A model generated the notes under the pieces. The model saw only the letters and a list, made by a program, of their open reading frames with translations, searched no databases and was not told the origin of the DNA. This document shows positions 568 through 19,891 of a DNA stretch of 37,897 nt, in pieces (the stretch's first letter is position 1; every line of letters starts with the position of its first letter). The position numbers and the translations under genes were made by a program. This DNA comes from Actinomycetota bacterium (GTDB lineage: Bacteria; Actinomycetota; UBA4738; HRBIN12). The stretch is taken from positions 47,120 through 85,016 of the forward strand of contig JBBDWS010000097.1 in NCBI GenBank assembly GCA_040902755.1, given 5' to 3'.

Positions 568-576
568 GGTACGGGG

Positions 577-3544: not shown

Positions 3545-3567
3545 GCGGAGGCCGGTCCGGCTTCCCC

Positions 3568-4758: not shown

Positions 4759-4767
4759 ACCGAGCGG

Positions 4768-5889
4768 ATGGGCGCCCTCGGTCAGGTCTCCTTCTTCGTC
4801 GCCCTGATCTTCGTGATCGTGATCCACGAGGCGGCGCACTTCGGCGTCGCCAAGGCGTTCGGCATCAAGGTCACCGAGTTCTTCGTCGGGTTCGGACCCC
4901 GGATCTGGTCCACCAAGCGCGGAGACACCGAGTACGGCTTCAAATGGATCCCCGCCGGCGGCTACGTGAAGATCGCCGGGATGAACCCGTACGAGCAGGT
5001 CCTGCCCGAGGATCTGCCGAGGACCTACGGCGCGAAACCGGCGTGGCAGCGTGCGCTCGTCATCGTCGCGGGCCCGGCAACGCACTTCGTGCTCGCATTC
5101 CTGTGCTTCGCCATCTGGCTCGGCTTCGTCGGCGAGCCACGGTTCGTGGATCCCGTGATCGATCGGGTGCCGCAGCAGCTCGGCAACCAGCCATCACCCG
5201 CATTCACCGCGGGGCTTCAAGGGGGCGACGTGATCGTCCGTGTCAACGGGGTCTCGCATCCCTCTACCGAGGAGCTCCTGGCGTACACCCAACAGCACGT
5301 GGGCGAGCCGATCGAGATCACGGTTCGTCGCGACGGCACCACCGTGACCACCGAGGTCGTACCGGTGCCCTCCACGATCGCGGGTGAGCGCATCGCTCGG
5401 ATCGGGGTGGTGCTCCGGAGCGGCCGCGAGCTACGGGAGACGCGGGGTGCGCTCGGCGCGATCACCGGTGGGGCGGACCTGGTGAGGGAGTCCGCCGTGG
5501 CAACGGTCGACGGTGTGGGTCGCGTATTCGGTCCCTCGGGGATCGAGCGGGTGATCGAGCTGGTGTTCACCGATGCGCCGCGCACGCTCGAGGATCCCGC
5601 GAGCGTCGTCGGCGTGGGGCAGGTCGCCGGAGACTTCGCGTCGCGCGGCGACTACTGGGACATCCTGTCGCTGTTCGGATACGTGAACGTGTTCGTCGGC
5701 CTGCTGAACCTGCTGCCGCTCCCGCCGTTCGACGGTGGCCACCTCGCCGTGCTGGTCCTGGAGAAGATCCGCGGAAAGCCCGTCGATATGCGCAAGATCA
5801 TTCCCGTCTCCGCAATGGTCGCGGCGTTCTTCATCCTGTTCACGATCGCCGTGGTCTACGTCGATCTGGTGAAGCCGCCGAGCTTCTGA
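4768..5889 (+). CDS. rseP: Site-2 (M50) zinc metalloprotease, RseP/Rip1-like, with PDZ domain
   Basis: HEAAHF (HExxH) lies in the first TM region and NLLPLPPFDGGH lies near the C-terminus, with a central PDZ-like segment. The dxr-rseP-ispG neighbourhood is conserved. Confidence 0.85.
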   Translation: MGALGQVSFFVALIFVIVIHEAAHFGVAKAFGIKVTEFFVGFGPRIWSTKRGDTEYGFKWIPAGGYVKIAGMNPYEQVLPEDLPRTYGAKPAWQRALVIVAGPATHFVLAFLCFAIWLGFVGEPRFVDPVIDRVPQQLGNQPSPAFTAGLQGGDVIVRVNGVSHPSTEELLAYTQQHVGEPIEITVRRDGTTVTTEVVPVPSTIAGERIARIGVVLRSGRELRETRGALGAITGGADLVRESAVATVDGVGRVFGPSGIERVIELVFTDAPRTLEDPASVVGVGQVAGDFASRGDYWDILSLFGYVNVFVGLLNLLPLPPFDGGHLAVLVLEKIRGKPVDMRKIIPVSAMVAAFFILFTIAVVYVDLVKPPSF

Positions 5890-5923
5890 GCGCGCGCCGG
5901 CGGCGCCACCACGATTTCTCAAC

Positions 5924-6664
5924 ATGCCGCCGGATGTGAGGCAACAGCCTGCGGATACGATTGCTCCCGTGACCCACCAGACGGTCCTGGTCGTCGACGA
6001 CGAAGAGACGATCGCCGAGGCGGTCCGAGCACGCCTCGAGAACGAGGGCTATCGCGTGCTCGTGGCCGGCGACGGCGGCCAGGCCATCGAGACGGCGGCC
6101 CGGGAGCGCCCCGACCTCGTCGTCCTGGACCTCATGCTTCCGGGGATGGACGGGCTCGAGGTCTGCAAGGAGCTGCAACGCGAGCGGTGGGTCCCCGTCC
6201 TGATGCTCACGGCCCGGACGGAGGAAGCCGACAAGGTCGCCGGGTTCGCGGTCGGCGCCGACGATTACCTGACCAAGCCGTTCAGCCTGCGCGAGCTCGT
6301 CGTGCGGGTGCGCGCGATCTTGCGGCGCGTCGAGCGCATCGGCCAGGCGTCCACGACCGAGCCGTTGCAGCTCGGCGGCATGTCGATCGATCCGACACGC
6401 CGGCGGGTCGCCGTCGACCGGACCGACGTGCCGCTCACCCCGCTCGAGTTCGAGATCCTCCTCACGCTGGCGCGGGAGCCGGGCGTCGTGTTCACGCGCG
6501 AGCAGCTGATGGAACGCGTGTGGGGCTACCGGGACTACGCCGGTGGACGCGTCGTCGATTCCCACGTCGCGCGGATCCGGCGAAAGCTCGGCGAGGAGGG
6601 CGACGGACCGCGGTTCATCCGAACGATCCACGGCATCGGCTACGCCTTCCGGGAAGACGCGTAA
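5924..6664 (+). CDS. OmpR-family response regulator
   Basis: Receiver domain (VLVVDDEE, LVVLDLMLPGMDG, KPF) plus a winged-helix output domain (LTPLEFEILLTLA...VDSHVARIRRKL). Confidence 0.88.
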   Translation: MPPDVRQQPADTIAPVTHQTVLVVDDEETIAEAVRARLENEGYRVLVAGDGGQAIETAARERPDLVVLDLMLPGMDGLEVCKELQRERWVPVLMLTARTEEADKVAGFAVGADDYLTKPFSLRELVVRVRAILRRVERIGQASTTEPLQLGGMSIDPTRRRVAVDRTDVPLTPLEFEILLTLAREPGVVFTREQLMERVWGYRDYAGGRVVDSHVARIRRKLGEEGDGPRFIRTIHGIGYAFREDA

Positions 6665-6666
6665 CC

Positions 6667-8028
6667 ATGCGACCGTTCGAGAAGCTCCCGACGATCCGGT
6701 CCAAGCTCGGGTCCGTCATCGTGTTCGCCGTCGGTCTGACCGTCGTCCTCGTGTACTTCCTGCTCGGGTTCGCGCTGCGGAACTCGTTCCGAGATGCCGA
6801 TCTCGTCGAGCTGCTCGGGATCGCGCAGGAGCGCAGCACGACCGCCTCGGCGTCACCGGCGCCCGAGGGAACCTCGCTCGCGCGGCTCCAGAGCGGTGAG
6901 TTCGTCTGGGTGGGGGCCGAGCTCGCGGAGCCGCCGCGGTTCGCGGGCGGTGTCCACGTCGGCGTCGCGAACGGGATCGAGTACGCGGCGGTGCCGGTTC
7001 GCGACGGCAGCGGGCAGATCCTCTACGCCGTGCGAGAGGAACCGGGGTTCTGGGTCGCCTCGACGCGCTTCCTCTTCGAGTTCTGGTGGCAGCTCCTCGT
7101 CGCGGGCGCGGTCGCCGCGGCGACGGCGTTGGTCATCGCCCGCTGGCTCGCACGCGGGATGACCCAACCGCTGCGCGAGATGGCCAAGGCCGCGCAGAGC
7201 ATGGAGGCCGGCGACTACGGCCAGCGTGTGCAGACGCGCTCCCGCGACGAGGTCGGCCAGCTCACGGTCGCGTTCAACCGGATGAGCGGCGAGCTCGAGG
7301 ACCTCGAACGGCTTCGCCGGGATCTCGTCGCCAACGTGTCGCACGAGCTCCGAACGCCGATCTCGGCATTGCGCGCGCTCCTGGAGAACCTGCTCGACGG
7401 CGTCGAGCGACCCGATCCGGAGACGCTCCAGGTGATGCTCGCGCAGACCGAACGGCTCGGGCGCCTGGTCGACCAACTGCTGGAGCTGTCTCGTCTGGAG
7501 TCCGGGGACGTGCCGATGGTGCGCGAACGCGTCGCCCTGCCACCGCTCGTCGCGCGGGTGCTCTCGGAGATCGACGTCATGCGGGGCCGCCGCGACGTCG
7601 AGCTGGCCGAGGACCTTCCGAAGGACCTGCCTCCGGTGTACGCCGACGCCGAACGCGTGCACCAGGTCCTGTTCAATCTGCTCGACAACGCCGTGCGATT
7701 CTCGCCGTCGGGGGGCCGGGTGACGGTGCGCGCCTCGACCCGGAACGGATCCGTCGACGTCGCGATCGCCGATACGGGGCCCGGCATCGCGTCCGAACAT
7801 CTGCCGCGCGTGTTCGAGCGCTTCTACCGCGTGGACCCGGGACGCTCGCGCGACGAGGGAGGGACCGGCATCGGCCTGGCGATCGCGCGTTCGGTCGTGG
7901 AGGCCCACGGGGGCCGCATCTGGGTCGAGAGCGAGCCGGGCAAGGGCAGTGTGTTCACGTTCGAGCTCCCGGTCGACGACGGGCGGGAGTCCGAGACCGG
8001 AAGCGAGACGACAAGGAGGAGCCGTTGA
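6667..8028 (+). CDS. Sensor histidine kinase (2 TM, HAMP, HisKA, HATPase_c)
   Basis: ATG 6667 lies 2 nt after the regulator stop. H-box SHELRTPISAL, N-box LLDNAVRFSP, G1 DTGPGI and G2 GTGIGLAIAR are all present. The track ORF 6187..8028 is over-extended at its 5' end. Confidence 0.87.
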   Translation: MRPFEKLPTIRSKLGSVIVFAVGLTVVLVYFLLGFALRNSFRDADLVELLGIAQERSTTASASPAPEGTSLARLQSGEFVWVGAELAEPPRFAGGVHVGVANGIEYAAVPVRDGSGQILYAVREEPGFWVASTRFLFEFWWQLLVAGAVAAATALVIARWLARGMTQPLREMAKAAQSMEAGDYGQRVQTRSRDEVGQLTVAFNRMSGELEDLERLRRDLVANVSHELRTPISALRALLENLLDGVERPDPETLQVMLAQTERLGRLVDQLLELSRLESGDVPMVRERVALPPLVARVLSEIDVMRGRRDVELAEDLPKDLPPVYADAERVHQVLFNLLDNAVRFSPSGGRVTVRASTRNGSVDVAIADTGPGIASEHLPRVFERFYRVDPGRSRDEGGTGIGLAIARSVVEAHGGRIWVESEPGKGSVFTFELPVDDGRESETGSETTRRSR

Positions 8029-8474
8029 AGTCGACCACGACCACCATCGAGGTGACCCCGCCGGGCCGCTACGCCTACCTCGACCTCACGGACGAGCTCG
8101 CGCGGGCGGTCAAGGACTCGGGAGTCACGGACGGCGCGATCGTCGTGTTCTGCCCGCACACGACGTGCACGCTCCTGATCAACGAATGGGAGGAGGGAGC
8201 CCTGGAGGACTTCCGCGAGCGGGTCACCCGGCTGGTGCCGGAGGACGGGTACTTCGCGCACGACGACCTCGCGCGACGGAAGCAGAACCTGGACGATCCG
8301 CACGAACGGCGCAACGGCCATTCGCACGTCACGGCGATGCTGCTGTCGTCCTCCTCGCACGCGATCCCGCTCTCGGGCGGCGAGCCGATGCTCGGTCGCT
8401 GGCAACGGCTGATCCTGCTCGAGCTCGACGAGCCGAAGGAGCGCCAGGTCGTGTTCCACGTGTTCGGCGACTAG
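8025..8474 (+). CDS. yjbQ: YjbQ/UPF0047-family protein (secondary thiamine-phosphate synthase-like)
   Basis: TTG 8025 overlaps the kinase stop (TTGA). The sequence YLDLTDEL...VFCPHTTCTLLINEWEEGALEDF...NGHSHV...GRWQRLILLELD matches the YjbQ fold family pattern. The start codon is uncertain. Confidence 0.72.
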   Translation: MKSTTTTIEVTPPGRYAYLDLTDELARAVKDSGVTDGAIVVFCPHTTCTLLINEWEEGALEDFRERVTRLVPEDGYFAHDDLARRKQNLDDPHERRNGHSHVTAMLLSSSSHAIPLSGGEPMLGRWQRLILLELDEPKERQVVFHVFGD

Positions 8475-8494
8475 CCCCTCGCCTGGGAAACTGA

Positions 8495-9607
8495 GTGGCG
8501 ATGCTCGCAGAGCGCCGGAAGACCCGTCAGATCCGCGTCGGCGATGTCGCCGTGGGCGGCGATGCCCCCATCAGCGTCCAGTCGATGACCACCACGAAGA
8601 CCGCCGACGTGAACGCCACCCTGCAGCAGATCGCTTCGCTCGTGGCCACCGGGGTCGACATCGTCCGGGTCGCGGTTCCGCACTGGGACGATGCCGAGGC
8701 GCTGACCGCCATCGCCGCCAAATCGACCGTTCCGGTCGTCGCCGACATCCACTTCCAATGGAAGTACGCGATGGCGGCGCTCGAGGCGGGTATCCAAGGA
8801 TTACGGATCAACCCGGGCAACATCAAGTATCAGGACAAGGTCCGTCTGATCGCCCGCGAGGCGAAAGCCCGAAGCGTTCCGATCCGCATCGGGGTGAACG
8901 CCGGCTCGTTGGAGAAGGAGCTCCTGGAACGACACGGCGCGCCGACCCCCGAAGCGCTCGTGGAGAGCGCGCTGAACGAAGCGAGGATCCTCGAAGAGGA
9001 GGACTTCTTCGACATCAAGATCTCGGTCAAGCACTCGAACCCGCGCGTGATGATCGAGGCGTACCGGATGCTTTCCGCGCGCTGCGACTATCCGCTCCAC
9101 CTCGGCGTCACCGAGGCGGGCCCCATGCCGATGGGCGGGGTGAAGAGCTCCGTCGGGATCGGCACGCTGCTCGCCGAGGGGATCGGGGACACGATCCGCG
9201 TGAGCCTCACCGACGATCCGGTCGAGGAGGTCAAGGTCGGGACGCAGATCCTGCAGTCACTCGGCCTTCGCAAGCGCGGCCTCGACCTGGTCGCGTGCCC
9301 CAGCTGCGGCCGCGCCGAGGTCGACGTACTGGGTCTGACCAAACAGGTCCACGAGGCGCTCGAGCGCGAAGGGCTGAAGGTCCCGATCCGCGTCGCGGTG
9401 ATGGGATGCGTGGTGAACGGACCCGGCGAGGCGCGCGAGGCCGACCTCGGGATCGCCGCGGGCAAGGGACAGGGGTTCCTCGTGGTGAAGGGCGAGGTCA
9501 TCGAGAAGATCCCCGAGGATCGCTTCGTCGAGCGCCTGATCCAGGAGGCCAAGAAGATCGACGCGGAGCGGGCCGCCGTCGGGAGCGACGGCGCCGAGAT
9601 CGGCTAG
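8495..9607 (+). CDS. ispG: 4-hydroxy-3-methylbut-2-en-1-yl diphosphate synthase
   Basis: 370 aa with [32 protein letters not shown] and a C-terminal CPSCGR...GCVVNGPGE Fe-S cluster motif. Confidence 0.93.
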
Positions 9608-10176
9608 CGGCGAGCAAGGGAGAGGAAGTTGCGGACGATCGTCGGTCCGTCGGGCGTGAGGATCGACTCCGGGTGGAACTGCACGCCGAAGCGCGGAAGC
9701 GTTCGGTGCTGCGTGGCCATCACCAGGCCGTCGTCGCTCCACGCCGTGAGCTCGAGCTCGGAGGGCAGGCCGTCCCGCCGCACCACGAGCGAGTGGTAGC
9801 GGCCGGCCTCGAACGGGTTCGGCACGCCGGCGAGGATCCCCGCACCCTCGTGATGGACGAGCGACGCCTTGCCGTGCACCGGCGCCGCGCGCTCGACCAC
9901 GCCGCCGGACGCGAGGCCGAGCGCCTGGTGCCCGAGACAGACCCCGAGCACCGGTGTCTGGGGCGGCAAGATCGCGAGCAACTCGGGGAAACACCCCGCA
10001 TCCTCGGGCCGCCCGGGGCCGGGCGACAGGATCACCGCCGCCGGGTCTCTCGCCACGAGTGCCTCCGCGGGCTCCGCGTCGCTCTTCACCACCTCCGTCG
10101 GCTCGCCGAGGCTCTCGATCAGCTGCACGAGGTTGTACGTGAACGAGTCGTAGTGGTCGACGACGAGGATGGTCAC
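9604..10176 (-). CDS. trpG: Anthranilate synthase component II (glutamine amidotransferase)
   Basis: 190 aa with [25 protein letters not shown] (catalytic Cys) and [11 protein letters not shown] (His/Glu). The first two codons (GTG ACC, 10171-10176) lie outside the 51-bp repeat, i.e. in island DNA. Confidence 0.85.
10120..10170. repeat. Left att-type direct repeat (51 bp, perfect)
   Basis: cagctgcacgaggttgtacgtgaacgagtcgtagtggtcgacgacgaggat is identical base for base to 18345..18395. It lies inside codons 3-19 of trpG. Confidence 0.85.
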
Positions 10177-10224
10177 GGTCGTACGGCCTGGCAGACGGGC
10201 AGGAGGAGAGCTTCTCGGGCGCTT

Positions 10225-10246
10225 GGAGTCAGCACGGAGTCAGCAC
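10225..10246 (+). repeat. Tandem 11-mer GGAGTCAGCAC x2 (candidate recombinase arm-type sites)
   Basis: Perfect tandem duplication 55 bp inside the left repeat. A related pair sits in the same orientation 70 bp inside the right repeat (18253..18274). Confidence 0.45.
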
Positions 10247-10264
10247 GGGGCCAGGGTACCGGAA

Positions 10265-10288
10265 GGCCCCAGGCGGCTCCCTGGGGCC
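10265..10288. promoter_or_regulatory. 9-bp perfect inverted repeat directly upstream of the integrase SD
   Basis: ggccccagg-cggctc-cctggggcc abuts AAGGAGG (10289-10295) and GTG 10300. It could be an operator or a translational hairpin; function is inferred only. Confidence 0.3.
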
Positions 10289-10299
10289 AAGGAGGCGCT

Positions 10300-11352
10300 G
10301 TGGCGAGTATCCGTAGGACGGAGGCGGGCACGTGGCAGGTCTACTGGCGGGAGCCTGGCAGCGGGAAGCAGGTGGCCCGGAACCTGTCAAGCCAGGCTGA
10401 TGCCAGAAGCCTCCGAGCCGAGGTCGAGCACCGCATGGACCGGGGGACCTATGTCAGGGAGGCTGCCCGTCGCATCTCGCTGGAGGACTACCTAGACGGG
10501 GTCATCTCCTCGTTGTCCTGGCGACCGCAGTCCCGCCAGAACTGGGCGCTCGCGGCTCGCAAGCACATCGTCCCGGTCATCGGCGGCTACCGTCTCTGCG
10601 AGGTCACCCCCGCCACCGTCCGGTCCTTTCTCGCCGAGCTAGAGGCGAGCGAGTGGACTAAGAGCCTCTGCTACGACATCCTCTCCCGCGCCTTCCGCAC
10701 CGCCGAGACGGAAGGGCTCGTGATGAGTCCCATGCGAGCCGTGCGCCGCCCGTCGCCCGCCGCTCCGGCTGTCCAACCCTTGGCACCACGGGTCGTGGAG
10801 GCACTCGCGTCCGCCATCACGCCCCGGTACCGGCTGGTGGTCCTGCTCGGCGGGTTCGCTGGTCTCCGCATCGGAGAGGTCGGGGGGTTGCACGTCGACG
10901 ATTTCGACGGACAACGGCTCCGCATCCATCGGGCTGCGCTGCCTCATGACGGTGGCGTCTTGGGCCCGACGAAGACGAAGGCGAGCCGTCGCACCATCGT
11001 GGTGCCGTCCTTCCTTGCCTCCGAACTCGGCCAGGTGGAGCCGCAGCCGGACGGCAGACTGTTCGCGACCCGGACGGGCGGGTTGGTTCACCGTCAGTCC
11101 GTCGGCCCCCGATGGCAGCACGCCTGCCGCATCGTCGGCGTCGATGCACGGTTCCATGACCTGCGTCACACGTGCGCCTCGCTCCTCATCGCTGCTGGTG
11201 AGCAGCCGAAGGTCATCCAGCACTTTCTCGGTCACGCCAACATCCGGGTGACGCTCGACGTGTACGGGCACCTGTTCGAGGAGTTCGCTGCGTCGGCCGC
11301 TGAGCGCCTCGACGCAGCTTGGGAAGGGCGTTCGTTGAGAGCCGTCATTTGA
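10300..11352 (+). CDS. int: Tyrosine recombinase / phage-type integrase
   Basis: GTG 10300 is preceded by GGAGG. There is an N-terminal SAM-like/arm domain, and the catalytic residues sit in GLRIGEVGGL (Arg), HDLRHTCASL (H-x-x-R) and LGHANIRVTLDVYGHL (His..Tyr). The track ORF 8758..11352 is a read-through artefact upstream of 10300. Confidence 0.9.
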   Translation: MASIRRTEAGTWQVYWREPGSGKQVARNLSSQADARSLRAEVEHRMDRGTYVREAARRISLEDYLDGVISSLSWRPQSRQNWALAARKHIVPVIGGYRLCEVTPATVRSFLAELEASEWTKSLCYDILSRAFRTAETEGLVMSPMRAVRRPSPAAPAVQPLAPRVVEALASAITPRYRLVVLLGGFAGLRIGEVGGLHVDDFDGQRLRIHRAALPHDGGVLGPTKTKASRRTIVVPSFLASELGQVEPQPDGRLFATRTGGLVHRQSVGPRWQHACRIVGVDARFHDLRHTCASLLIAAGEQPKVIQHFLGHANIRVTLDVYGHLFEEFAASAAERLDAAWEGRSLRAVI

Positions 11353-11460
11353 CCTGTAGGCGTCTCTTGAAGGGTCCTTGGGCCCCAACTGACCTCGCGG
11401 CTCGCTCCGAGACGACGTGTCGCCACCGGTGGGCCTCCAGACACCCACCGAACTTAGGGG

Positions 11461-11488
11461 TTGCGCCGATTCTCCCCGCCGCTATAAT
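11461..11488 (+). promoter_or_regulatory. Sigma-70-like promoter candidate upstream of the RT gene
   Basis: TTGCGC (11461-66), a 16-nt spacer, then TATAAT (11483-88). A perfect -10 hexamer is conspicuous in this high-GC context. The predicted start near 11495 falls just before the RT frame opens at 11502. Confidence 0.45.
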
Positions 11489-11681
11489 CACCTACCTGTA
11501 GTTTCACGTATGTGACGCTGAACCTTCCCCTAGGCGCTCAACGGGGGAGGGACACGCTTTCAAGAAGCGGCATCTGCTAGCGAACCTGAGTCGCCTCGGC
11601 CAGGCGGACAGTACAAGCCTGCTGCCCGACGTCGTCGGATGGAACGACTTCGTCTTCATCGGCGACGAACTCTGCCACGAG

Positions 11682-12989
11682 TTGAGCCAGTCTTGGCGCG
11701 CCTTCGTGCCGGGCCCCGTGGAGCTGTTCCCCTACCCCAACGGCGAGAAGCTGCGCCATCTCGCGGTCCTTCGTCTCCCAGACCTGCTGCTTTACCGAGC
11801 CGCCGGGGGACTAGTAGCGTCGACGACTGACCCGCTTCTGTCGCCCCATGTCTTCTCCTCCCGGCTTCGGTCACCATGGCCGAGCTGGTCGCTCCGTGAC
11901 GGGCACACGGCGCACAGGCGCTGGCGCGAGGTTGCCGTGAAGACCATCTCCGAAGACCCGCTGACGGAGGCGTGGGTTACCGACGTGGCGAACTACTACG
12001 GGTCCATCTCTCCGCACCGGCTGATTGAGATGCTCACGAAGCTCAACTGTCCGTTGCCGGCCGTCAGGATGGTCACTACCTTCCTCGACGAGTGGTCATC
12101 TGCTCGCGTCCCAGGACTGCCCGTCGGTCCAGAACCCTCCAGCGTGATGGGAACGGCGTTCCTGATGCCGCTCGATGACGCGCTCGCTCGCAACGGCCAC
12201 ACGTACTTCCGCTACACGGACGATGTCGTCGTCGTAGGCCGAGACCTAGCACGGGACGACCTCGAAGGCATGGTCACCGAAACGCTGGCCGAGCTGCATC
12301 TCGAGCGGTCCGCAGAGAAGACGCATTGGTTCCCGCCGTTCTTCGCAACGCAGGCCGTCGATGACATCATCCTCAGCTACATTCACCGAGGGGGACGACT
12401 CCAAGCGTCGGCGGAAGAACTCATGAGCATTCTCGAGCAGGAGGCATCCGCAGCCCAGCCCGACGTGAAGCGTCTCCGATTCGTCCTCAAAGGCCTAAGT
12501 TCGGTAGGAGAGTCGTTCGCTTCCTCGACCCTGTGCGCGAACATGAACCTGCTGAACGCCGACCCGAGCAACACCTGCTCCTACCTGGCTAAGACATCGC
12601 TGCGCTCTGCCGTGACGCGCGAGACGCTGCTTCACATCCTCGAACTCCCGCCCGCCGACGAGCGAGAGGCACTCCGGTTCCACGCTCTGCTAGCCATGCG
12701 CGACAGTAGCTGGGGAAGTGCCGAAGGACGGGTGTTCATGGCGGTGGCATGCGATGAGCGCGCTCCATCGGCGACTCGAGCGCAAGCGTGGATGACTGCC
12801 GCGCGGACCCCCGCGTGGCGGTCGCGAGAAGTGATGGACGCTGCCGACGCGGAACGGCATCCGGCGGTCCGCCGCGCAGCGGTGTTGACTCTGCGACGGG
12901 CCGCACCTTCGCACGAGAAGGATGCGTTCCTGAATAAGATGACGGCGGACCCTTACGCGTGCGCGGCTGCGAAGTGGGCGGCCGCTTAA
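11682..12989 (+). CDS. Reverse transcriptase with helical HEAT-like C-terminal domain (UG/Abi defence-RT-like architecture)
   Basis: RT motifs occur in order: PYPNGEKLRHLAVLRLPDLLLY (1/2), VTDVANYYGSI (A), GLPVGPEPSSVMGTAFLMPLDD (B), FRYTDDVVVV (C, YTDD at 12213..12224) and LHLERSAEKTHWF (D/E). The C-terminus has ERHPAVRRAAVLTLRRAA-type repeats. The start is uncertain: TTG 11682 is the first canonical start, but the frame is open from 11502. Confidence 0.8.
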   Translation: MSQSWRAFVPGPVELFPYPNGEKLRHLAVLRLPDLLLYRAAGGLVASTTDPLLSPHVFSSRLRSPWPSWSLRDGHTAHRRWREVAVKTISEDPLTEAWVTDVANYYGSISPHRLIEMLTKLNCPLPAVRMVTTFLDEWSSARVPGLPVGPEPSSVMGTAFLMPLDDALARNGHTYFRYTDDVVVVGRDLARDDLEGMVTETLAELHLERSAEKTHWFPPFFATQAVDDIILSYIHRGGRLQASAEELMSILEQEASAAQPDVKRLRFVLKGLSSVGESFASSTLCANMNLLNADPSNTCSYLAKTSLRSAVTRETLLHILELPPADEREALRFHALLAMRDSSWGSAEGRVFMAVACDERAPSATRAQAWMTAARTPAWRSREVMDAADAERHPAVRRAAVLTLRRAAPSHEKDAFLNKMTADPYACAAAKWAAA

Positions 12990-13114
12990 GGCGGTGTCGG
13001 GTAGTCCGCGACGGGGGCAAGAACAAGCGCGAACTCCAAGCTGAGTCCTGTCGCCTTCAGCATCGACGCATCCGTGCCGATGGTCTACCTGCGTCTAGTT
13101 GAACCGGAGGCGTC

Positions 13115-13213
13115 ATGCGAAAGCTCGAGGAGAATGACTGGAAGTTCCTCGCGCTCCTCTTTGGGACGATGGTCCTGATGGTGTTTCTCTCGAACTGCCT
13201 GCCAACCCGCTAG
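13115..13213 (+). CDS. Candidate 32-aa hydrophobic peptide MRKLEENDWKFLALLFGTMVLMVFLSNCLPTR
   Basis: ATG 13115 is preceded by GGAGG (13106-10, 4-nt spacing). The peptide has a charged N-terminus followed by one TM-length hydrophobic stretch. It falls below the ORF-track size cutoff, there is no homology evidence, and it overlaps an antisense ORF. Confidence 0.3.
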   Translation: MRKLEENDWKFLALLFGTMVLMVFLSNCLPTR

Positions 13214-13609
13214 CCGCCCGCATCCTGGGGCAGCACTCGACTTCTGACCGAAGTCGCCCTGCCCGTCTCTTGTTTTTGCCGGGACGGCATCCATCTCCCA
13301 TCCCACGTCCCCCGTGGATGCCCCAAGAGCCCTGATGGTCTCCACGCGATGGACTCGGCAATCCTCGACGGATGAGACCCGGAATAGGTCCTCGTCTGGG
13401 ACGAACTCGACCGCCTACCTCTGCCGCCCATCGCCCGAACGATTCGGCACGTCCCCAAGACGAGATGACTGCTGCTCCGCTTGTGCAGAGAGACGGACAC
13501 GCCCGCGTCCGCTTCTTGACAGCTTCTAACCTTGTCGCCTAACAGGCGCGGCTTTTGTCCGTCACTCGCCCGTCCCGCATGGCACCATCGCAAGCCAGTC
13601 AGTCGGAGG

Positions 13610-14176
13610 TCAGCGCGGGCGTACTTCAGCCTCGACTACCTTCGCTCGTTCCTTCCGAGCCTCTCGGCCCCAGCCCGTCATTCCGTGCCAGCCCTCGGAG
13701 AAAACGGCATTTCGGGCGTCTTCGGAGAGTGGAGGCGCGAAGTCCTTGTAGGTCGTTTGGAATAGCTTCTTCACCTTCGCTCCGGTCCACCCCTCATCCG
13801 CGTCGTCCGCTCCCTTGACGTACAGCGTGGTCAAGAGGGTTGTGACAGCAGCCAACGCGGCGGCCGAGAACTTCTTGCTCTCAACCGACCACGTTTCTTC
13901 AGGCTCCCATTTGACCCCGATGATGATGATGATGGCTGCCGCTGCTGCAGCGATGGCACCCGGTACTAAGACCCAGTAACTCAGCCATGTCACCGCGCCA
14001 GCCGGGTACTGTGGGAGACGACTTCGGCCGACGAAGTAGCAAATGACGCCTCCGGCTACTGCGAGGGCAACCAAACCGACGGGCGCCACCCAATCCGCCG
14101 CGAAATACAGCCAGGCAAGACAAAGACCACCTATGCCGACAAGAAAAGCAGGCAAGGCGTCACGAAACCGGTCCAC
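13610..14176 (-). CDS. Hypothetical integral membrane protein (3-4 TM, charged C-terminal domain)
   Basis: GTG 14176 immediately follows the stop of the upstream 84-aa ORF. Hydrophobic helices are ALPAFLVGIGGLCLAWLYFAA, VAPVGLVALAVAGGVICYFVG and TWLSYWVLVPGAIAAAAAAIIIIIGV. I recognise no family. Confidence 0.6.
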   Translation of the reverse strand: MDRFRDALPAFLVGIGGLCLAWLYFAADWVAPVGLVALAVAGGVICYFVGRSRLPQYPAGAVTWLSYWVLVPGAIAAAAAAIIIIIGVKWEPEETWSVESKKFSAAALAAVTTLLTTLYVKGADDADEGWTGAKVKKLFQTTYKDFAPPLSEDARNAVFSEGWHGMTGWGREARKERAKVVEAEVRPR

Positions 14177-14431
14177 CTACGCGAGTCCCACCAACGGCTT
14201 CGACCGGTGCGCCTTACCCTCGTGGGTACACTCGAACACGAGCCCTTCCTTCATCAGGACAGGACGTAGGTCCGCGAACGGCTCATCAAGTCGGCACTCT
14301 CCTGTTGCCTGCAAGATGGCGGACAGCGCACGGAAGGCAAGCGCGTCCCGCCCGGGCTCGTCCCTCCACTGGCGGTTCCTCGCTGCGCTTTCCAGGTCCC
14401 TGTTGATGCCGTCGCGCGTTCGTCGTTCCAT
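14177..14431 (-). CDS. Hypothetical 84-aa soluble protein, adjacent (stop/start abutting) to the membrane protein
   Basis: The internal ATG 14431 is preceded by AGGAGG at about 6 nt. The track ORF extends to 14536 but lacks an SD. The TAG stop at 14177-79 abuts the downstream GTG. Confidence 0.55.
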   Translation of the reverse strand: MERRTRDGINRDLESAARNRQWRDEPGRDALAFRALSAILQATGECRLDEPFADLRPVLMKEGLVFECTHEGKAHRSKPLVGLA

Positions 14432-14467
14432 ATCCACCTCCTGAAGGAACCGTTGTGGGAGCGTAGG

Positions 14468-14481
14468 GCTTCCTAGGAAGC
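14468..14481. promoter_or_regulatory. 14-bp perfect palindrome upstream of the 84-aa/membrane-protein pair
   Basis: gcttcctaggaagc lies 37-50 nt upstream of ATG 14431 on the minus strand. It is an operator-like dyad; function is inferred only. Confidence 0.3.
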
Positions 14482-14901
14482 GAGTCGAACCACGCCTACT
14501 CCGGGGGGCCGGAGGGGTTACCTGACCCCACCCCAAGCAGTGCGATGACTTCTCGCCGCAGTGCGCAGGACGCGTCTACCAGGTAGTTCTGCGCGACAGC
14601 CCGGTTTGGACAGGCCTCCTGGAGTCACCAGCTAGGCGCTGCTGAGGCGGGACTAAGTCGGCTTGTAGTGCCGCCGAACCCCCTGAAAGTCACGCCCTCA
14701 CGGTCGCAAGGCGGTCTCGGACCACGCGGCCGGGACGGGATACCACCACGGCCGCGGGTCCCATTGTGCAGAGTCACTACGTCCTGACACCCTGCGTCAT
14801 TTTCCAGGCGACCGCGCGACTGTTAGGGCGTGACCAGCGTAGACGCCTCCTACCCCTGTCTTTCCTTCCCACTTATTAGAGGGGTCGCGGGAGGAGGAGG
14901 G

Positions 14902-15264
14902 ATGGACGGTCGAGCTTCTGTCGGTGGGGCGAGTTTCGTTGGCCAGGCATCTAACTGCGTCGAACGAAGACTTATCCTGCATGTCCCTGGCCCTGTAGTT
15001 ATAGAGGGCCGGAGGCGAGACGCGCTTACCCGGCCCAGTAACTCTTGTAGGTGGTCACACACCGAAGAGCCGCGACGGGCACTCTCAGGTAGGAGCGGCG
15101 AACGGACGGGCCGCATTGCGGTCCAGTCCCTAGAAACCACTGCCCGTCTAGGCCTAAGGGATAGCTGTGTCCAGAAGCAGTTCAAGCAGTTCGCCAACGT
15201 CAGGCACCTCCAGGCTCTAGCGACACCCTTGCGCGGGTCGGCATTGCGCCGCGGGTTGCCGTGA
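14902..15264 (+). CDS. Doubtful 120-aa Arg-rich ORF
   Basis: ATG 14902 sits directly behind GGAGGAGGAGGG, and its TGA overlaps the GTG start of the next gene (GTGA at 15261-64). However, the composition (R/S/G-rich), rare codons (aga, ata, cta, agg) and lack of recognisable motifs make coding status weak. Confidence 0.25.
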   Translation: MDGRASVGGASFVGQASNCVERRLILHVPGPVVIEGRRRDALTRPSNSCRWSHTEEPRRALSGRSGERTGRIAVQSLETTARLGLRDSCVQKQFKQFANVRHLQALATPLRGSALRRGLP

Positions 15265-15881
15265 GCAGCCGAGGCGGGCCCATCTCACCTGATGTCTTGA
15301 GAGTCGTCCGCAACTATCCGCAGCTGGTGGAAGCGGACGCCGATTGCCGCGCGTTCCTCGACGAACACCCGGAGTTTGCTCCCGGCTTCAACCCGAACAA
15401 GAGAAAGCGACCACGAAACACTGACGGGCGCAGGCTCACCACGTACTCCGTGGCGCCGGGAAGCGTCGACTCGTATGCGCCTCTCTACGCGCCTCAAGAG
15501 ACCGATGTCGACGAGGCAGCAAGGGATGGCTTGACGAGCTTCTTCGCTGAAGCCATGTGCTTTGTGAAACCCGAACAGAGGCAACTCTTGGAGTGGCGTT
15601 ACTGGGAGGGACTCAAGCAGCACGAGATTGCCGAGAAGCTCGGGATTATGCAGCCGACGGTGAGTCACAATCTCGCTGCAGCGCACCGTGCTCTCGTGGA
15701 TGCGATAGCGCTTTTCGAAGGCCCGCTACCCGTGATTCGGACGGGTGGGCGGCCAAAACGAGATGAGGCAGCGACGCAGGAACAAGCTCTGCAGGCTTTG
15801 GTGCGCCGCGGACTCTTGCCCGCGCCGCCCCTGTACGCGCGCGCACCTGAACACTGGCACCGCCAGTCGCTGGGGAGTTGA
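15261..15881 (+). CDS. Sigma-70 region-4-like HTH protein (no recognisable region 2)
   Basis: EQRQLLEWRYWEGLKQHEIAEKLGIMQPTVSHNLAAAHRALVDAI matches the sigma70_r4_2 / LuxR-type HTH pattern. The N-terminal 110 aa has no recognisable sigma region-2 motifs. Confidence 0.62.
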   Translation: MSSRGGPISPDVLRVVRNYPQLVEADADCRAFLDEHPEFAPGFNPNKRKRPRNTDGRRLTTYSVAPGSVDSYAPLYAPQETDVDEAARDGLTSFFAEAMCFVKPEQRQLLEWRYWEGLKQHEIAEKLGIMQPTVSHNLAAAHRALVDAIALFEGPLPVIRTGGRPKRDEAATQEQALQALVRRGLLPAPPLYARAPEHWHRQSLGS

Positions 15882-16026
15882 GACCGGTCTAACCGTGGAG
15901 GAGCTGGCGCGTTCAGGAGACGACGCGTGACCCTTGCGTAATACGACGCATACTTGCGTGCGTACCTGCCTGCGTACTCACAGACCCTTCACCCATTGAC
16001 CCATTTCTTCTACAGCGTCGTCGGAG

Positions 16027-16743
16027 CTAGCTTGTCGAATGATTCCCCTCGAAGACGATGCTCAACGTCTGCTGCCCGTCTAGGTAGCTGAGCCGTTCCG
16101 GAACCATGCCTGTCACCCGCCCATCGAACGTCAGGTACCCGACGAGGTTCGACTTCGGGGGAAGTTTCCCAGTCTCGGGGAGGAAGTTCGGCGGGAACTC
16201 AGCTTGGGACCGGACGTTCACAGGACCAAAGGTCCGGGAGTCCCGCGCAGTTACAACGAAGTTGCGAAGGTTGAATCGGACTGGCCGGTTCGTTGGGTTG
16301 CGAAGGCCGACGTAGAAGAGGAGGACGTCGTAACCGTCGCTCTCCCACGACTGGCAGTCGGACTCGTACGCCCCGAGCGTTTCCTGCTCGACGGTGTACG
16401 CATGGACGGTGCAGCCGCTGACTTCGCGTGGGAAGTCAACGACGGTCAGCCACAGCCGTTCTCCCTTCAGCCACTCCTGCTGGTGAAACGTCTGCTCGAC
16501 CCGACGAGGGCTGGTCGTGGGGGGGGTGGCGCTGGCGGATGGAGATGGCGACGAGCTGGGTATTGGGCTGGGCGATGAGGTAGGGGACGCGACAACGGTC
16601 TCGGTGTCGTCCCGCAAAGCCAGAACTGCACCGACCAGTACGACGGCGACGAGTAGCGAGACCAGCAACCCCACCACAACCCCTGACGTGAAGGTGCGCT
16701 GCTTGGGCGCGGGTGGAGTTGGACTCGCCACAGCCGGAAGCAT
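16027..16743 (-). CDS. Membrane-anchored protein with S/P-rich linker and DUF4352-like beta-sandwich ectodomain
   Basis: The N-terminal TM is GVVVGLLVSLLVAVVLVGAVLAL, followed by the linker SPTSSPSPIPSSSPSPSASATPPTTSP. The C-terminal pattern is ...LFYVGLRNPTNRPVRFNLRNFVVTARDSRTFGP...LVGYLTFDG, typical of DUF4352. Confidence 0.62.
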   Translation of the reverse strand: MLPAVASPTPPAPKQRTFTSGVVVGLLVSLLVAVVLVGAVLALRDDTETVVASPTSSPSPIPSSSPSPSASATPPTTSPRRVEQTFHQQEWLKGERLWLTVVDFPREVSGCTVHAYTVEQETLGAYESDCQSWESDGYDVLLFYVGLRNPTNRPVRFNLRNFVVTARDSRTFGPVNVRSQAEFPPNFLPETGKLPPKSNLVGYLTFDGRVTGMVPERLSYLDGQQTLSIVFEGNHSTS

Positions 16744-16819
16744 GACCCCTGCATGAGAGCCCGTGCAACGAAGCCCGGGGTACGGTCGGCCAGGTCCCTG
16801 ACGGGGGTTAGGAGCCGGT

Positions 16820-17101
16820 CTAGTGCCCTCTCACTCTCGCTCCCCACCGCGCAGTTCCGCCTCTATACTGGCGAACCCAAGGCTGCACGTCGCTCTTGCT
16901 CCAGAGCGACCCACGCGCGTACCGAGCCGAAGGTGGTGGAAACGAAGGGTCATGGCGTAGCTGGTCAGCGCGCTGCTTGGAGATTCCCAGCAGCCCGGCG
17001 ATGTCGACGAGTCTGAGTACGTCCGCCCTTGGTTGTTCGTCATTGCGGCCCGCTGGCTGGCCGGTGGCAGTCCGCCTATTCAACCGCGGAAGGCCCATCA
17101 T
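16820..17101 (-). CDS. xis: Excisionase/AlpA-family (MerR-like HTH_17) DNA-binding protein
   Basis: LRLVDIAGLLGISKQRADQLRHDPSFPPPSARYARGSLWSKSDVQPWV follows the Xis/AlpA pattern of a helix-turn-helix followed by a wing with conserved W. It overlaps the upstream gene by 26 nt; an alternative TTG start lies at 17083. Confidence 0.68.
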   Translation of the reverse strand: MMGLPRLNRRTATGQPAGRNDEQPRADVLRLVDIAGLLGISKQRADQLRHDPSFPPPSARYARGSLWSKSDVQPWVRQYRGGTARWGARVRGH

Positions 17102-18191
17102 CAGAACTCGCGCCGCTCCGTTGCGATTTCGACCAGCAGCTCAAGCAGCGAGGACCTTCCGGGTCCTTCTCCTTGCGCGTGAGGTGCGAGTCGCACGCGA
17201 GGTTTCCACACACCACACAGCTCTCCGCGGCGTCGAAGCGACCGCAGATGCTGCATTGCGAAATGCGTCGGACACGCCGCTGCTGTTTTACGAGGTCCGA
17301 CAAAGCACGTGTGCGCTCGATTGATGGGAAGTCGGGAGGAACATCCACATTGGGCACCGCTTCTGGCATCGTGGTCGGCCAGAAGGTGGTGCCGGTGGTG
17401 AAGCCGCTCAAGGACTCTGCCGGGAGGAACGTTCCTTCCGGGATGGTAAGCGGACTCCTTTCCTGCAAGGCGGTGAGTTCTGTCCTCGACTTTTCGAGTG
17501 AAGCCTCGAGCTCGGCTACGCGATGCTCAGCAGACTCAAGTCGCTCCTCCTGTGCCTTGCCTGCTTGACCCAAGGCAAGTGCAGCCCCGCGCGTCTTCGT
17601 CAACTTCTCCTCCAAGTCGGCGACACGGGAGGCGAGCGCGTACTGCTCCTTCAACATGCGTGACTCGTCCGGAAGGATGTCACTCCAGTCCTCGATTGCG
17701 TCCTTCGCTGCAGCCTGCTGCTCCTGGACGACTCCAGCGAGCTTGTCAAGGGACTGCCGGGCTTGGGTGGTGAAGAGAATGGCATCGAAGGACTTTTCGT
17801 CCTTGTCAAGCACGAACTCCCGCCTCTCTCGGTTGACGAGGGCAGCGAGTCGGTCAAGGGCTCCCGAGAGTGTGACAACTCGGCGCAGAGCACTCCTCGC
17901 ATGGGGACGGATGCTCGCTTGAGCCGCAGCCTCCGTGCTCTGTCTAGCCGCCAGGAACGTAGCCCATATTGTGAGTCCAAAGGCGACGCCGCTGAAGAGT
18001 GCGACCTCGGGGCCTGTCAGCGCGCGCTCACGACTGACCAGCACCTGAAGCCCCACCGTCACGGCAGCCAGCGTTCCGAGCACGAGGGTCTGCCAGTACA
18101 GTTGCCACCAAGACCTTTTCTCGGTGTTCTGATTCATGACCGTGAGCCGTCCCCGCTCCGTACCATCATCCGCTGGGTCCATCGTGAGCAA
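17076..18191 (-). CDS. Hypothetical 2-TM protein with long coiled coil and C-terminal Cys-rich zinc-ribbon-like module
   Basis: TM helices are WWQLYWQTLVLGTLAAVTVGLQVLV and VALFSGVAFGLTIWATFLAA. A heptad-rich segment follows (LKEQYALASRVADLEEKLTK...RVAELEASLEKSRTELTALQ). The C-terminus reads CSICGRFDAAESCVVCGNLACDSH...RCLSCW. The start is ambiguous (TTG 18191, ATG 18182 or ATG 18137). Confidence 0.58.
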   Translation of the reverse strand: MLTMDPADDGTERGRLTVMNQNTEKRSWWQLYWQTLVLGTLAAVTVGLQVLVSRERALTGPEVALFSGVAFGLTIWATFLAARQSTEAAAQASIRPHARSALRRVVTLSGALDRLAALVNRERREFVLDKDEKSFDAILFTTQARQSLDKLAGVVQEQQAAAKDAIEDWSDILPDESRMLKEQYALASRVADLEEKLTKTRGAALALGQAGKAQEERLESAEHRVAELEASLEKSRTELTALQERSPLTIPEGTFLPAESLSGFTTGTTFWPTTMPEAVPNVDVPPDFPSIERTRALSDLVKQQRRVRRISQCSICGRFDAAESCVVCGNLACDSHLTRKEKDPEGPRCLSCWSKSQRSGASSDDGPSAVE

Positions 18192-18252
18192 TGCGGACCT
18201 TCACCGCAACCTCCACCGCCCGTTGGTCCCCCCTTTCCTCTCTTCATCCCTA

Positions 18253-18274
18253 ATAGTCAGCAAGGAGTCAGCAG
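18253..18274 (+). repeat. Tandem 11-mers ATAGTCAGCAA/GGAGTCAGCAG related to 10225..10246
   Basis: They share the AGTCAGCA core with 11-bp periodicity, in the same orientation as the left-end pair, and lie 70 bp inside the right repeat. Confidence 0.42.
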
Positions 18275-18341
18275 CAGCCATCTGGCCGATGTTGTTGGCG
18301 GCGGTCCGCCGGTAGCATCCCTGCAGCGTCCGCGGCTCTTC

Positions 18342-18398
18342 CTACAGCTGCACGAGGTTGTACGTGAACGAGTCGTAGTGGTCGACGACGAGGATCAC
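18342..18398 (-). pseudogene. trpG: Orphaned 5' remnant of trpG (18 codons, then TAG)
   Basis: GTG 18398-96 overlaps the trpE TGA (GTGA). It reads [18 protein letters not shown] and then stops at 18342-44, where island DNA begins. Confidence 0.75.
18345..18395. repeat. Right att-type direct repeat (51 bp, perfect)
   Basis: Identical to 10120..10170. The duplicated peptide [16 protein letters not shown] also appears in two track ORFs (8758..11352 and 17763..18608). Confidence 0.85.
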
Positions 18399-19891
18399 GA
18401 CGGGCTCGCCTCGGCATCGAGGACGGCGGGCAGGAGCGCGGCCGCCTTCGCCTTCGTCTCCGCGAGCTCGACCTCGGGGTCGGAGTCGGCGACGATCCCT
18501 GCACCCGTCTGCACGTGCGCGCGTGCGTCGGCGACGACGGCCGTGCGGATCGTGATGCAGAAGTCGAGGTCGCCGGCGAAGGTGCAGTATCCGACCGCGC
18601 CTGCGTAGGGCCCGCGCGCGGTTGGTTCGAGCTCGGCGATGAGCTCCATCGCTCGGCGCTTTGGCGCGCCCGTCACCGTCCCGGCGGGGAACGTCACGGC
18701 CAGCGCGTCGAGGGGGTGCCGGCCCTCGGCGAGCTCGCCCTCGACGGTGCTCACGATGTGCATCACCTTCGAGAACCGCTCGACGACCATGAGCTCGGTG
18801 GGCTGCACGGTCCCGGGGGTGCAGACGCGCCCGAGGTCGTTCCGCGCGAGGTCGACGAGCATCGCGTGCTCGGCCCGTTCCTTCGGGTCGGCCAGGAGCT
18901 CGTGCTCGAACAGGCGATCGCGCAGCTCGGTCTCACCGCGCGGCCGCGTCCCGGCGATCGGCCGGGTCGTGACGCGACGGCCCTCGACGCGCACGAGCGG
19001 CTCCGGCGACGACCCGGCGAGCTCCAGCCCCAGCATCCGCACGAAGAACATGTACGGCGCGGGGTTCGTGACGCGCAGGCGCCGGTAGACTGGGAAGCCT
19101 CCCCGCGAGGAGGCGAAGCTCACGCGCCGGGACGGCACACCCTGATAGATGTCGCCGGCGAACACGTGCTCTTTCATGGAGCGCACGATCTCGCGGAACC
19201 GCTCGTCCGGCATGTTCGGTTCGCCCGCCCCCTCGTCGGCGAGGCCGTCTCCCGGTGGCTCGGGCCGAGGGGAGGCGGGGGACGAGAGGCGCGCGGCCAG
19301 ATCCTCGAGCGCGGCGATGCCGTCGTCGTACGCGCCGGCCGGCACGTGCGCGACGAGCAGGAGGCGCTGCCGCCAGTGATCGAACACGACCGCCCGGTCG
19401 ACGACGAGGAGCCCGATCGGCGGACCGGGCGTCTCGCCGGGGGGGAAGGGGTGTCCGTCGAGGAGCACCGCCGCCTCGTACGACAGGAAGCCGACAAGCC
19501 CTCCGGTGAGCGATGGCAGGCCCTCGACCCGCGGCGCGTGCAACCGCTGCGCCAGCGCCACGAGATCCGTCCGCGCTTGGCCCGTCCCCTTCACGTCGAA
19601 CCCGAGGTCGCGCGCGACGTCGTCGACTCGCAGGCCCTCCTCGTCCAGGATGACGACCGCCGCCGGATCGCCCGCGACGAAGGAGTACCGCCCCCAGCGC
19701 TCGGAGCGTTCCACGCTCTCCAGCAGGACCCCGGGGCCATCGCCTGCGAGGGTGGGGAACACGCCCACCGGCGTCGAGACGTCGGCCAGCAACTCCGTCC
19801 ACACGGGGACGAGCCGGTTCGCCCCTGCGAGCGAATCGAAGGTGTCCCGATCCGGCCGGACCTTCACGTCATCACCTCGTGAGCCGAACAA
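18395..19891 (-). CDS. trpE: Anthranilate synthase component I
   Basis: 498 aa with LLESVERSERWGRYS (the LLES-X10-S Trp feedback motif) and the chorismate-binding core (GAPKRRAMELIAELE, GPYAGAVGY). The start is TTG 19891 or GTG 19868. Confidence 0.9.
   Translation of the reverse strand: MFGSRGDDVKVRPDRDTFDSLAGANRLVPVWTELLADVSTPVGVFPTLAGDGPGVLLESVERSERWGRYSFVAGDPAAVVILDEEGLRVDDVARDLGFDVKGTGQARTDLVALAQRLHAPRVEGLPSLTGGLVGFLSYEAAVLLDGHPFPPGETPGPPIGLLVVDRAVVFDHWRQRLLLVAHVPAGAYDDGIAALEDLAARLSSPASPRPEPPGDGLADEGAGEPNMPDERFREIVRSMKEHVFAGDIYQGVPSRRVSFASSRGGFPVYRRLRVTNPAPYMFFVRMLGLELAGSSPEPLVRVEGRRVTTRPIAGTRPRGETELRDRLFEHELLADPKERAEHAMLVDLARNDLGRVCTPGTVQPTELMVVERFSKVMHIVSTVEGELAEGRHPLDALAVTFPAGTVTGAPKRRAMELIAELEPTARGPYAGAVGYCTFAGDLDFCITIRTAVVADARAHVQTGAGIVADSDPEVELAETKAKAAALLPAVLDAEASPS

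Follow-up and report, generated by a model that had tools for sequence, protein, structure and literature searches.

How did trpG come to lie 8.2 kb away from trpE in an actinobacterial genome, and what is the DNA that separates the two genes? The question is posed by a stretch of 37,897 nt (the window) from Actinomycetota bacterium (UBA4738; HRBIN12), assembly GCA_040902755.1, contig JBBDWS010000097.1, in which an integrative island had been proposed from the sequence alone (the original prediction). On the evidence given below, positions 10171–18344 (the island interior, 8174 bp), plus one copy of a 51-bp core, are very likely a small integrative genomic island, inserted site-specifically at the 5′ end of trpG by its own tyrosine integrase.

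The 51-bp repeat and the ends of trpG and trpE

The features at the two ends of the island are:

9604..10176, minus strand: trpG, anthranilate synthase component II, intact, 190 aa (Pfam GATase 2.5e-50; NCBIfam trpG_papA 2.8e-55)
10120..10170, no strand: attachment (att) core copy at the integrase-proximal junction; perfect 51-bp repeat, with host trpG to its left, collinear with the closest relative, L001
10171..10176, minus strand: island-derived trpG start and extra Thr codon (GTG ACC), from direct reading of the sequence
18342..18398, minus strand: orphan trpG stub of 18 codons, comprising the original GTG and 17 core codons followed by an island TAG (direct reading; alignment with empty sites)
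18345..18395, no strand: att core copy at the integrase-distal junction (trpE end); perfect 51-bp repeat; on the minus strand the trpE stop/GTG overlap comes before it, as at empty sites
18395..19867, minus strand: trpE, anthranilate synthase component I (Pfam Chorismate_bind 4e-89; Anth_synt_I_N 8.7e-17)

The 51-mer CAGCTGCACGAGGTTGTACGTGAACGAGTCGTAGTGGTCGACGACGAGGAT is present twice in the window, at 10120–10170 and 18345–18395, without a single mismatch between the copies, and no third copy is found in the window even when up to 3 mismatches are allowed. In 100 dinucleotide-preserving shuffles no copy of the 51-mer occurs, and the chance expectation is 0. Read on the minus strand, the 51-mer consists of 17 codons, from ATC CTC GTC to GTG CAG CTG, which are codons 3–19 of the 190-aa class-I glutamine amidotransferase (GATase) encoded by trpG. 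The perfect direct repeat and its correspondence with these codons, both put forward in the original prediction, are borne out by the repeat comparison, by the Pfam GATase and NCBIfam trpG_papA matches and by the reading frame. There are no tRNA genes in the window, in agreement with the proposal that the attachment site lies in a protein-coding gene and not in a tRNA gene.

The two copies of the core differ in what has become of the gene around them. At the integrase-proximal copy, the island contributes trpG codons 1–2 (GTG ACC) and the core contributes codons 3–19. This GTG ACC is absent from 73 of the 77 empty sites in relatives described below, which have NTG directly before ATCCTC; the trpG genes of relatives begin with (A/G)TG ATC CTC. 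The restored TrpG begins M-T-ILVVD... and is full length with one added residue, and it is because 17 codons have been duplicated exactly that the new N-terminus differs by this one residue only. At the distal copy, the trpE stop TGA (18397–18395) overlaps the original GTG (18398–18396) as GTGA, and the stub that starts there terminates at the island TAG (18344–18342). Since the stub overlaps the trpE stop and the new start is supplied by the island, the ancestral GTGA coupling has been lost.

These junctions are consistent with the following course of events. The integrase would have recombined an element-borne attP, containing a 51-bp copy of the first trpG codons, with a chromosomal attB formed by the trpG 5′ end, immediately behind the overlap of the trpE stop and the trpG start. 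Integration would have duplicated the core, leaving the trpE side with a dead 18-codon stub that ends at the island TAG. At the opposite junction GTG ACC from the island, being in frame with the core, would have restored a full-length TrpG. As trpG would now be 8.2 kb away from trpE and its promoter, it would have to be transcribed from island DNA. Within the core, positions 7–24 form an inverted repeat, GTCGT-CGACCACT-ACGAC, with an 8-nt spacer (N8), and the crossover probably took place near this GTCGT-N8-ACGAC element, in the start-proximal part of the core.

Empty sites in relatives

To obtain a sample of empty sites, TrpE was scanned against 185,579 species genomes, which gave 80 loci, all from uncultured Actinomycetota metagenome-assembled genomes, with TrpE identities of 66–97%. 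Of the 80 loci, 79 have trpG after trpE. Just one core-like site, with 0–10 mismatches, is present in 77 of the loci, one of which (L002) matches at 51 of 51 positions, and in 69 of these 77 the trpE stop and the trpG start overlap as NTGA, which indicates that translational coupling is the ancestral state. The empty sites anticipated in the original prediction are thus abundant. The opposite pattern, in which relatives would all carry the same 8 kb between trpE and trpG without terminal repeats, was also looked for, and relatives of island proteins are encoded in none of the 80 loci.

The sequence of L001, the closest relative, can be aligned with window positions 169–10170 and 18330–19816 at 92% nucleotide identity over 10 kb, and the two blocks join in one core. 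L001 is therefore collinear with the window minus 10171–18344. The lack of the island in a relative at 92% identity implies that insertion was recent relative to species divergence. The core itself is highly conserved as DNA: in 29 of the 77 species it has at most 3 mismatches in 51 bp, although TrpE identity drops to 66%. Judged from this conservation, the first 17 trpG codons would appear to offer a stable landing site. Exact-protein look-ups for TrpE, TrpG and IspG, aimed at finding the same strain with an empty site, returned no record.

In four relatives ordinary genes with a high GC content at third codon positions (GC3), and no integrase, lie between trpE and trpG (L022, 2791–4319; L041, 2056–2718; L052, 11459–12859; L061, 7386–8774). 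They include an S-adenosylmethionine (SAM)-methyltransferase-like gene, a trypsin-like protease and a glycosyltransferase/methyltransferase fusion, and show that the trpE–trpG junction is not always tight in the clade. Whether the island holds more codons of trpG, or a fossil 3′ end of trpE, was also examined by comparing 60 nt upstream and 40 nt downstream with 74 relatives; this candidate was rejected, as the local alignment scores did not exceed those of shuffled controls.

Composition, integrase and arm-type repeats

The features that point to an integration module at the island ends are:

10227..10245, plus strand: pair of AGTCAGCA repeats with an 11-bp period, candidate arm-type sites of the P arm (octamer count)
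10300..11352, plus strand: tyrosine integrase, 350 aa (Pfam PF00589, Phage_integrase, 6.7e-17; PHROG 1, 2e-57)
18255..18273, plus strand: second pair of AGTCAGCA repeats (P′ arm), also kept in the sibling element L170 (octamer count)

The island is compositionally foreign to its surroundings. Its GC content is 0.61–0.64 against about 0.70 in the flanks, and the GC3 of its genes is 0.67–0.76 against 0.85–0.95 in host genes, so that the lower third-position GC noted originally in the interior is evident. The integrase gene, placed 130 bp inside the left repeat by the original prediction, starts 129 bp past the left core copy. The R..K..HxxR..H..Y residues of its product (in GLRIGE, TKTK, HDLRH and LGH..Y) align with those of a solved integrase structure (PDB entry 3nkh), and by this comparison the integrase is intact. 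Actinophage integrases are about 32% identical to it.

The AGTCAGCA octamer occurs 4 times in the 37.9 kb, always in the same orientation and in pairs, 57–90 bp inside each island end. Its expected count is 0.67, and none of the 100 shuffles reaches 4. The pairs are probably arm-type binding sites, and are candidates for recognition by the integrase (Int) or by the excisionase (Xis)-like protein.

A sibling element

Two genes near the right end of the island link it to a second element:

16820..17101, minus strand: 93-aa candidate excisionase/AlpA-like helix-turn-helix (HTH) protein (PHROG 66, E=3e-3; PADLOC PDC-M06B, 4e-5)
17076..18137, minus strand: 353-aa protein with transmembrane (TM) helices, a long coiled coil and a C-terminal Cys-rich, zinc-ribbon-like motif; part of an att-adjacent module common to siblings

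The 353-aa protein has only two non-self homologs, P0129 (84% identical) and P0130 (69%). P0129 is located on L170, a contig of 16.5 kb from the Joint Genome Institute (JGI), of which 1.55 kb aligns with the right end of the island at 83% identity. Within the common stretch are the core, starting at its position 10, the adjoining TAGGAAGAGCC, two TGCTGACT repeats, the gene of the 353-aa protein and that of the Xis-like protein, the latter with 70% amino acid identity. L170 shows no relation to trpE on the left side of core position 10. Because L170 has in common with the island, at 83–85% identity, the core, TAGGAAGAGCC, the arm repeats and the att-adjacent genes, but differs from it in cargo and in the other flank, it is evidently the element that carries the trpG-like core and the stop that follows it, and the module is mobile. 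The homology moreover breaks off beside the inverted repeat of the core, which suggests that strand exchange occurs in the start-proximal part of the core.

The cargo of L170 includes a DarT-like protein, an ADP-ribosylglycohydrolase and a UvrD/GajB-like helicase. The genes for these three proteins are consecutive (L170, 5117–9110), and the trio may represent a DarTG-like toxin-antitoxin defence variant in which the glycohydrolase replaces the macrodomain. As far as can be read from the two gene sets, the comparison shows that the att-proximal module is accompanied by different cargo of a defence-like kind. An integrase with 38% identity to that of the island, P0025, is encoded on a JGI contig equal in length to L170, but its location on L170 itself could not be confirmed.

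Alternative explanations

The original prediction had left undecided whether the locus is a minimal, non-autonomous island or a decayed remnant of a larger actinomycete integrative and conjugative element (AICE) or prophage. Its integrative nature stands; its decay has found no positive evidence. If the DNA were such a remnant, it would be immobile and the repeats would be scars of an old integration. The lack of Rep, Tra and capsid genes would fit this history, as would a 620-bp non-coding gap (12990–13609), several open reading frames (ORFs) with a weak coding signal, and the failure of protein, viral-contig and plasmid searches to find an identical or near-identical copy elsewhere. The 51-bp cores, however, are still identical, the integrase is full length with its catalytic residues, PHROGs and Pfam detect no pseudogene fragments of phage or conjugation genes, and the empty site of L001 at 92% identity points to a recent insertion. 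L170 is likewise of a small-gene, defence-cargo style that is not phage-like, and since it combines the same att module with different defence-like cargo, it points away from a remnant and towards an integrative island that is small and modular. We consider a decayed remnant quite unlikely. Vertical inheritance of the block, a segmental duplication or the target-site duplication of a transposon would account for the direct repeat, but for nothing further. The block, which is missing at all 80 related loci, is foreign in composition and has neither a transposase nor terminal inverted repeats, and 51 bp far exceeds known target-site duplications; an origin of this kind has next to no probability.

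A mis-join in the assembly would require the chromosomal trpE–trpG site to be empty and the element to be a free circle, or integrated in another strain, that was threaded into the contig via the 51-bp core. This possibility is brought to the fore by L085, an independent Logan assembly contig (SRR27977660; k=31; 8234 bp), which is identical to window positions 10141–18374 (0 mismatches) and includes both boundaries between island and core. As L085 ends exactly 30 nt (k−1) into each repeat, the assembly graph branches at the core. For k≤51 an integrated island and an empty site accompanied by a free circle should have all k-mers in common. The submitted contig (104,956 bp), in contrast, runs through both junctions, metagenome assemblers commonly use k>51 in their final rounds, and L170 displays a chromosomal-type junction for the same module. 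A mis-join is accordingly very unlikely, and would change little in the biology, since the attP of the element would match trpG perfectly even then. The length of L085 is the interior of 8174 bp plus 30 nt of each repeat, with the de Bruijn graph broken at the att repeats. L085 was considered as evidence of a circular form and rejected, its length being that expected from a k=31 graph branch; contigs of this kind could wrongly be taken for circles.

Site-specific insertion of a small island at trpG by its own integrase is thus our preferred explanation, but several observations weigh against it. The integrated state depends on the submitted assembly, as the de Bruijn graph for k≤51 is the same for either state. 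The original prediction had suggested that sibling islands at trpG be sought via the integrase; among 5.8 billion proteins the nearest non-self integrase homolog is 41% identical, no sibling emerged via the integrase above that value, the genomic contexts of the homologs P0002 and P0005 contain no trpG, and a second occupied trpG site was not found. The visible junction of L170 is not at trpE/trpG. The predicted Xis/AlpA-like HTH gene near the right end does exist as a 93-aa gene with a PHROG 66 match, so that the protein may act as Xis, but this assignment is weak: the protein has no Pfam match even at E=5, and its AlphaFold2 (AF2) model has a predicted local distance difference test score (pLDDT) of 54, too poor for a fold search. 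Finally, a scan with the sigma-70 consensus, which captures actinobacterial promoters poorly, detects no promoter-like site between trpG and int or anywhere in 9500–19000.

Comparison with known integrative elements

Insertion by a tyrosine integrase at the 5′ coding end of a gene is known from the dusA-specific integrative elements (for example IMEVchUSA3) and from the SXT/R391 integrative and conjugative elements at prfC, in which the element supplies the start or N-terminus and a promoter, and the gene remains intact (PMC8409611). The present island is similarly inserted inside a 5′ coding region and its GTG ACC restores the trpG frame. Unlike these elements it targets trpG and resides in Actinomycetota, it adds only one residue, and its duplicated segment is long and exact. 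Its integrase would be of another lineage, the best relatives being of actinobacterial or actinophage type (32–41% identity), and the likeness is one of function. The dusA and SXT elements bring a new promoter, whereas at the island-borne trpG start none is detected by the sigma-70 consensus scan; the island also has no known mobilisation genes, origin of transfer (oriT) or link to a helper. A further difference is that trpG comes second in a pair of translationally coupled genes. Integration at this downstream partner therefore also breaks the coupling of the operon.

The trpE–trpG junction has received foreign, phage-derived DNA before. In Pseudomonas aeruginosa the R/F-type pyocin (phage-tail) cluster sits between trpE and trpG (PMC7344871). 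That cluster is fixed, domesticated and proteobacterial, and no integrase or att structure is reported for it in PMC7344871. The island, in contrast, is lacking in all relatives; in its 8 kb it combines perfect att repeats with an integrase that is intact.

AICEs of the pSAM2/SLP1 type usually integrate into tRNA genes, and have genes for a replication initiator and for a transfer protein like FtsK/SpoIIIE. With them the island has in common an actinobacterial host, a tyrosine integrase beside att and a small Xis-like gene, the last a weak assignment. It differs in the lack of a detected Rep (RepSA, RepAM or prim-pol) and FtsK/SpoIIIE-like Tra protein, and in the absence of a tRNA gene from the window. 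PHROGs reveals no prophage or satellite hallmarks (capsid, terminase, portal, primase/packaging) in the island either.

It is well supported, then, that the locus holds an integrase island whose target is a housekeeping gene at its 5′ end, which the island also repairs. The strategy is known; trpG as its target is new, the integrase is divergent and the RT cargo is rare. The island does not overturn current understanding. With it, trpG joins the few protein-coding genes known to serve at their 5′ ends as integration sites with built-in repair, and this strategy is extended to uncultured soil Actinomycetota. Because the core is highly conserved in DNA, the integrase/attP pair could serve this poorly tractable group as an integration tool of broad range.

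The reverse transcriptase

The most conspicuous cargo gene encodes a reverse transcriptase (RT):

11574..12989, plus strand: class 1 UG/Abi-type RT, UG32/UG23-like, with a YTDD motif (PADLOC RT_UG32 4e-41 and RT_UG23 2.3e-35 on the extended ORF; Pfam RVT_1)

The RT has the catalytic YxDD motif in the form FRYTDDVVV. Both UG32 and UG23 belong to the class 1 UG/Abi RTs (Mestre et al. 2022, PMC9226505), and the island protein resembles both profiles over nearly their whole length, in the RT domain as well as in the C-terminal region: the RT_UG32 match spans profile positions 32–478 of 521, and the RT_UG23 match starts at profile position 5. The C-terminal region is covered by the profile match and has no Pfam HEAT match. 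The differences concern the accessory domains and partners. For UG32 a fused HTH has been reported (PMC9226505), but none is found by Pfam or NCBIfam in the annotated 435-aa protein, and PADLOC returns RT profiles only for the extended ORF of 495 aa. For UG23 a NUDIX or SLATT partner has been reported (PMC9226505), and none is detected at the island. The clade is rare; there are only 4 close homologs, 43–48% identical, among 5.8 billion proteins, and a metagenome scan with the RT alignment found only relatives at 35% identity or below.

The cargo formed by this RT would most likely be an anti-phage module. Against such a role it must be said that Mestre et al. rated the defence function of UG32/UG23-type RTs as 'inconclusive' (PMC9226505). 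Next to two of the 4 close homologs, N6/N4 DNA methyltransferase genes are found (L086, 372–1244; L087, 179–1015), and from this gene content the RT neighbourhood in L086 and L087 looks restriction-modification-like, of the defence-island type. The island presents a very rare class 1 UG/Abi RT clade in a clean, minimal context, which is easy to clone and test.

A further difference from the known UG/Abi RTs is that the island RT has no canonical start codon at its conserved N-terminus. Where its translation begins is uncertain: position 11574 holds a conserved CTG, and the earliest canonical start codon is a TTG at 11682. About 130 nt upstream of the annotated start are conserved in the clade (window, 11502–11681; L086, 2640–2782; L087, 1580–1718; L168, 126–253; L169, 808–937). 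In-frame ATG or GTG codons are absent from this region in all 5 RT sequences and TTG is absent in 4, and the conserved 'ELLANL' codon is CTG in 4 of the 5 sequences and TTG in L168. Since extension of the ORF lengthens the UG23 and UG32 profile matches, the upstream region is at least partly coding. It is possible that the clade initiates translation at a non-canonical codon. The same region holds a TAGAAT/TATAAT −10-like box, a C/T-rich hairpin and a GGAGG Shine-Dalgarno-like motif.

A broader reading combines the island and L170 into an undescribed family of small actinobacterial integrative cassettes, in which attP would mimic the first 17 trpG codons, anti-phage cargo would be swapped (UG/Abi RT against DarT-like toxin plus helicase), Trp synthesis would come under island-borne control, and the RT clade would start at a conserved non-AUG/GUG codon. 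Taken as a whole this is tentative and rather improbable. If it were true, the severing of trpG from trpE could stabilise the island or tie metabolism to island regulation.

Other genes of the island

The remaining genes are:

13610..14176, minus strand: 188-aa predicted membrane protein with hydrophobic segments, multi-TM; coding-like GC pattern, no family match
14177..14536, minus strand: 119-aa ORF (84 aa in the Logan call); no family match
14902..15264, plus strand: 120-aa ORF that overlaps the start of the next gene, of doubtful coding status (L085 gene call; weak codon-position GC signal)
15261..15881, plus strand: 206-aa protein with an HTH of the sigma-70 region 4 type (Pfam Sigma70_r4_2 1.8e-7; NCBIfam sigma70-ECF 2.2e-8, below the cut-off)
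16027..16743, minus strand: 238-aa protein with an N-terminal TM helix, a Pro/Ser/Thr-rich linker and a C-terminal domain (translation; no family match)

Together with the RT, these membrane and HTH proteins agree with the expectation of mostly regulatory, membrane and RT cargo. Searches of the island ORFs against Pfam, NCBIfam, PHROGs and PADLOC detect no replication, FtsK-like Tra, relaxase or capsid families, likewise as predicted, and the PHROGs matches are confined to the integrase, the RT, HTH regulators and the weak excisionase. Without replication or transfer genes, the island would need a helper or another route between cells. No matches were obtained by tblastn of o371, the RT and sig206 against 50,697 phage records or by megablast of the island against plasmids, and scans of viral contigs with the att junction, the 353-aa protein and Int gave no relatives.

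The 620-bp stretch at 12990–13609 lies between the convergent RT and membrane-protein genes and contains no convincing ORF. Neither this stretch nor the other non-coding gaps are similar to any locus compared, and no Rfam family is found on the island, this stretch included.

The AF2 model of the 353-aa protein (pLDDT 54) is too poor for a fold search. Its more distant homolog P0130 is encoded directly downstream of an unrelated short integrase; in L171 (337–2359) and L173 (72–2094) a homolog of the P0130 type adjoins an unrelated 244-aa Phage_integrase protein, with a resolvase nearby in L171 and L172. Both homologs of the 353-aa protein are found beside integrative modules, and the protein seems to travel with integration modules of several types.

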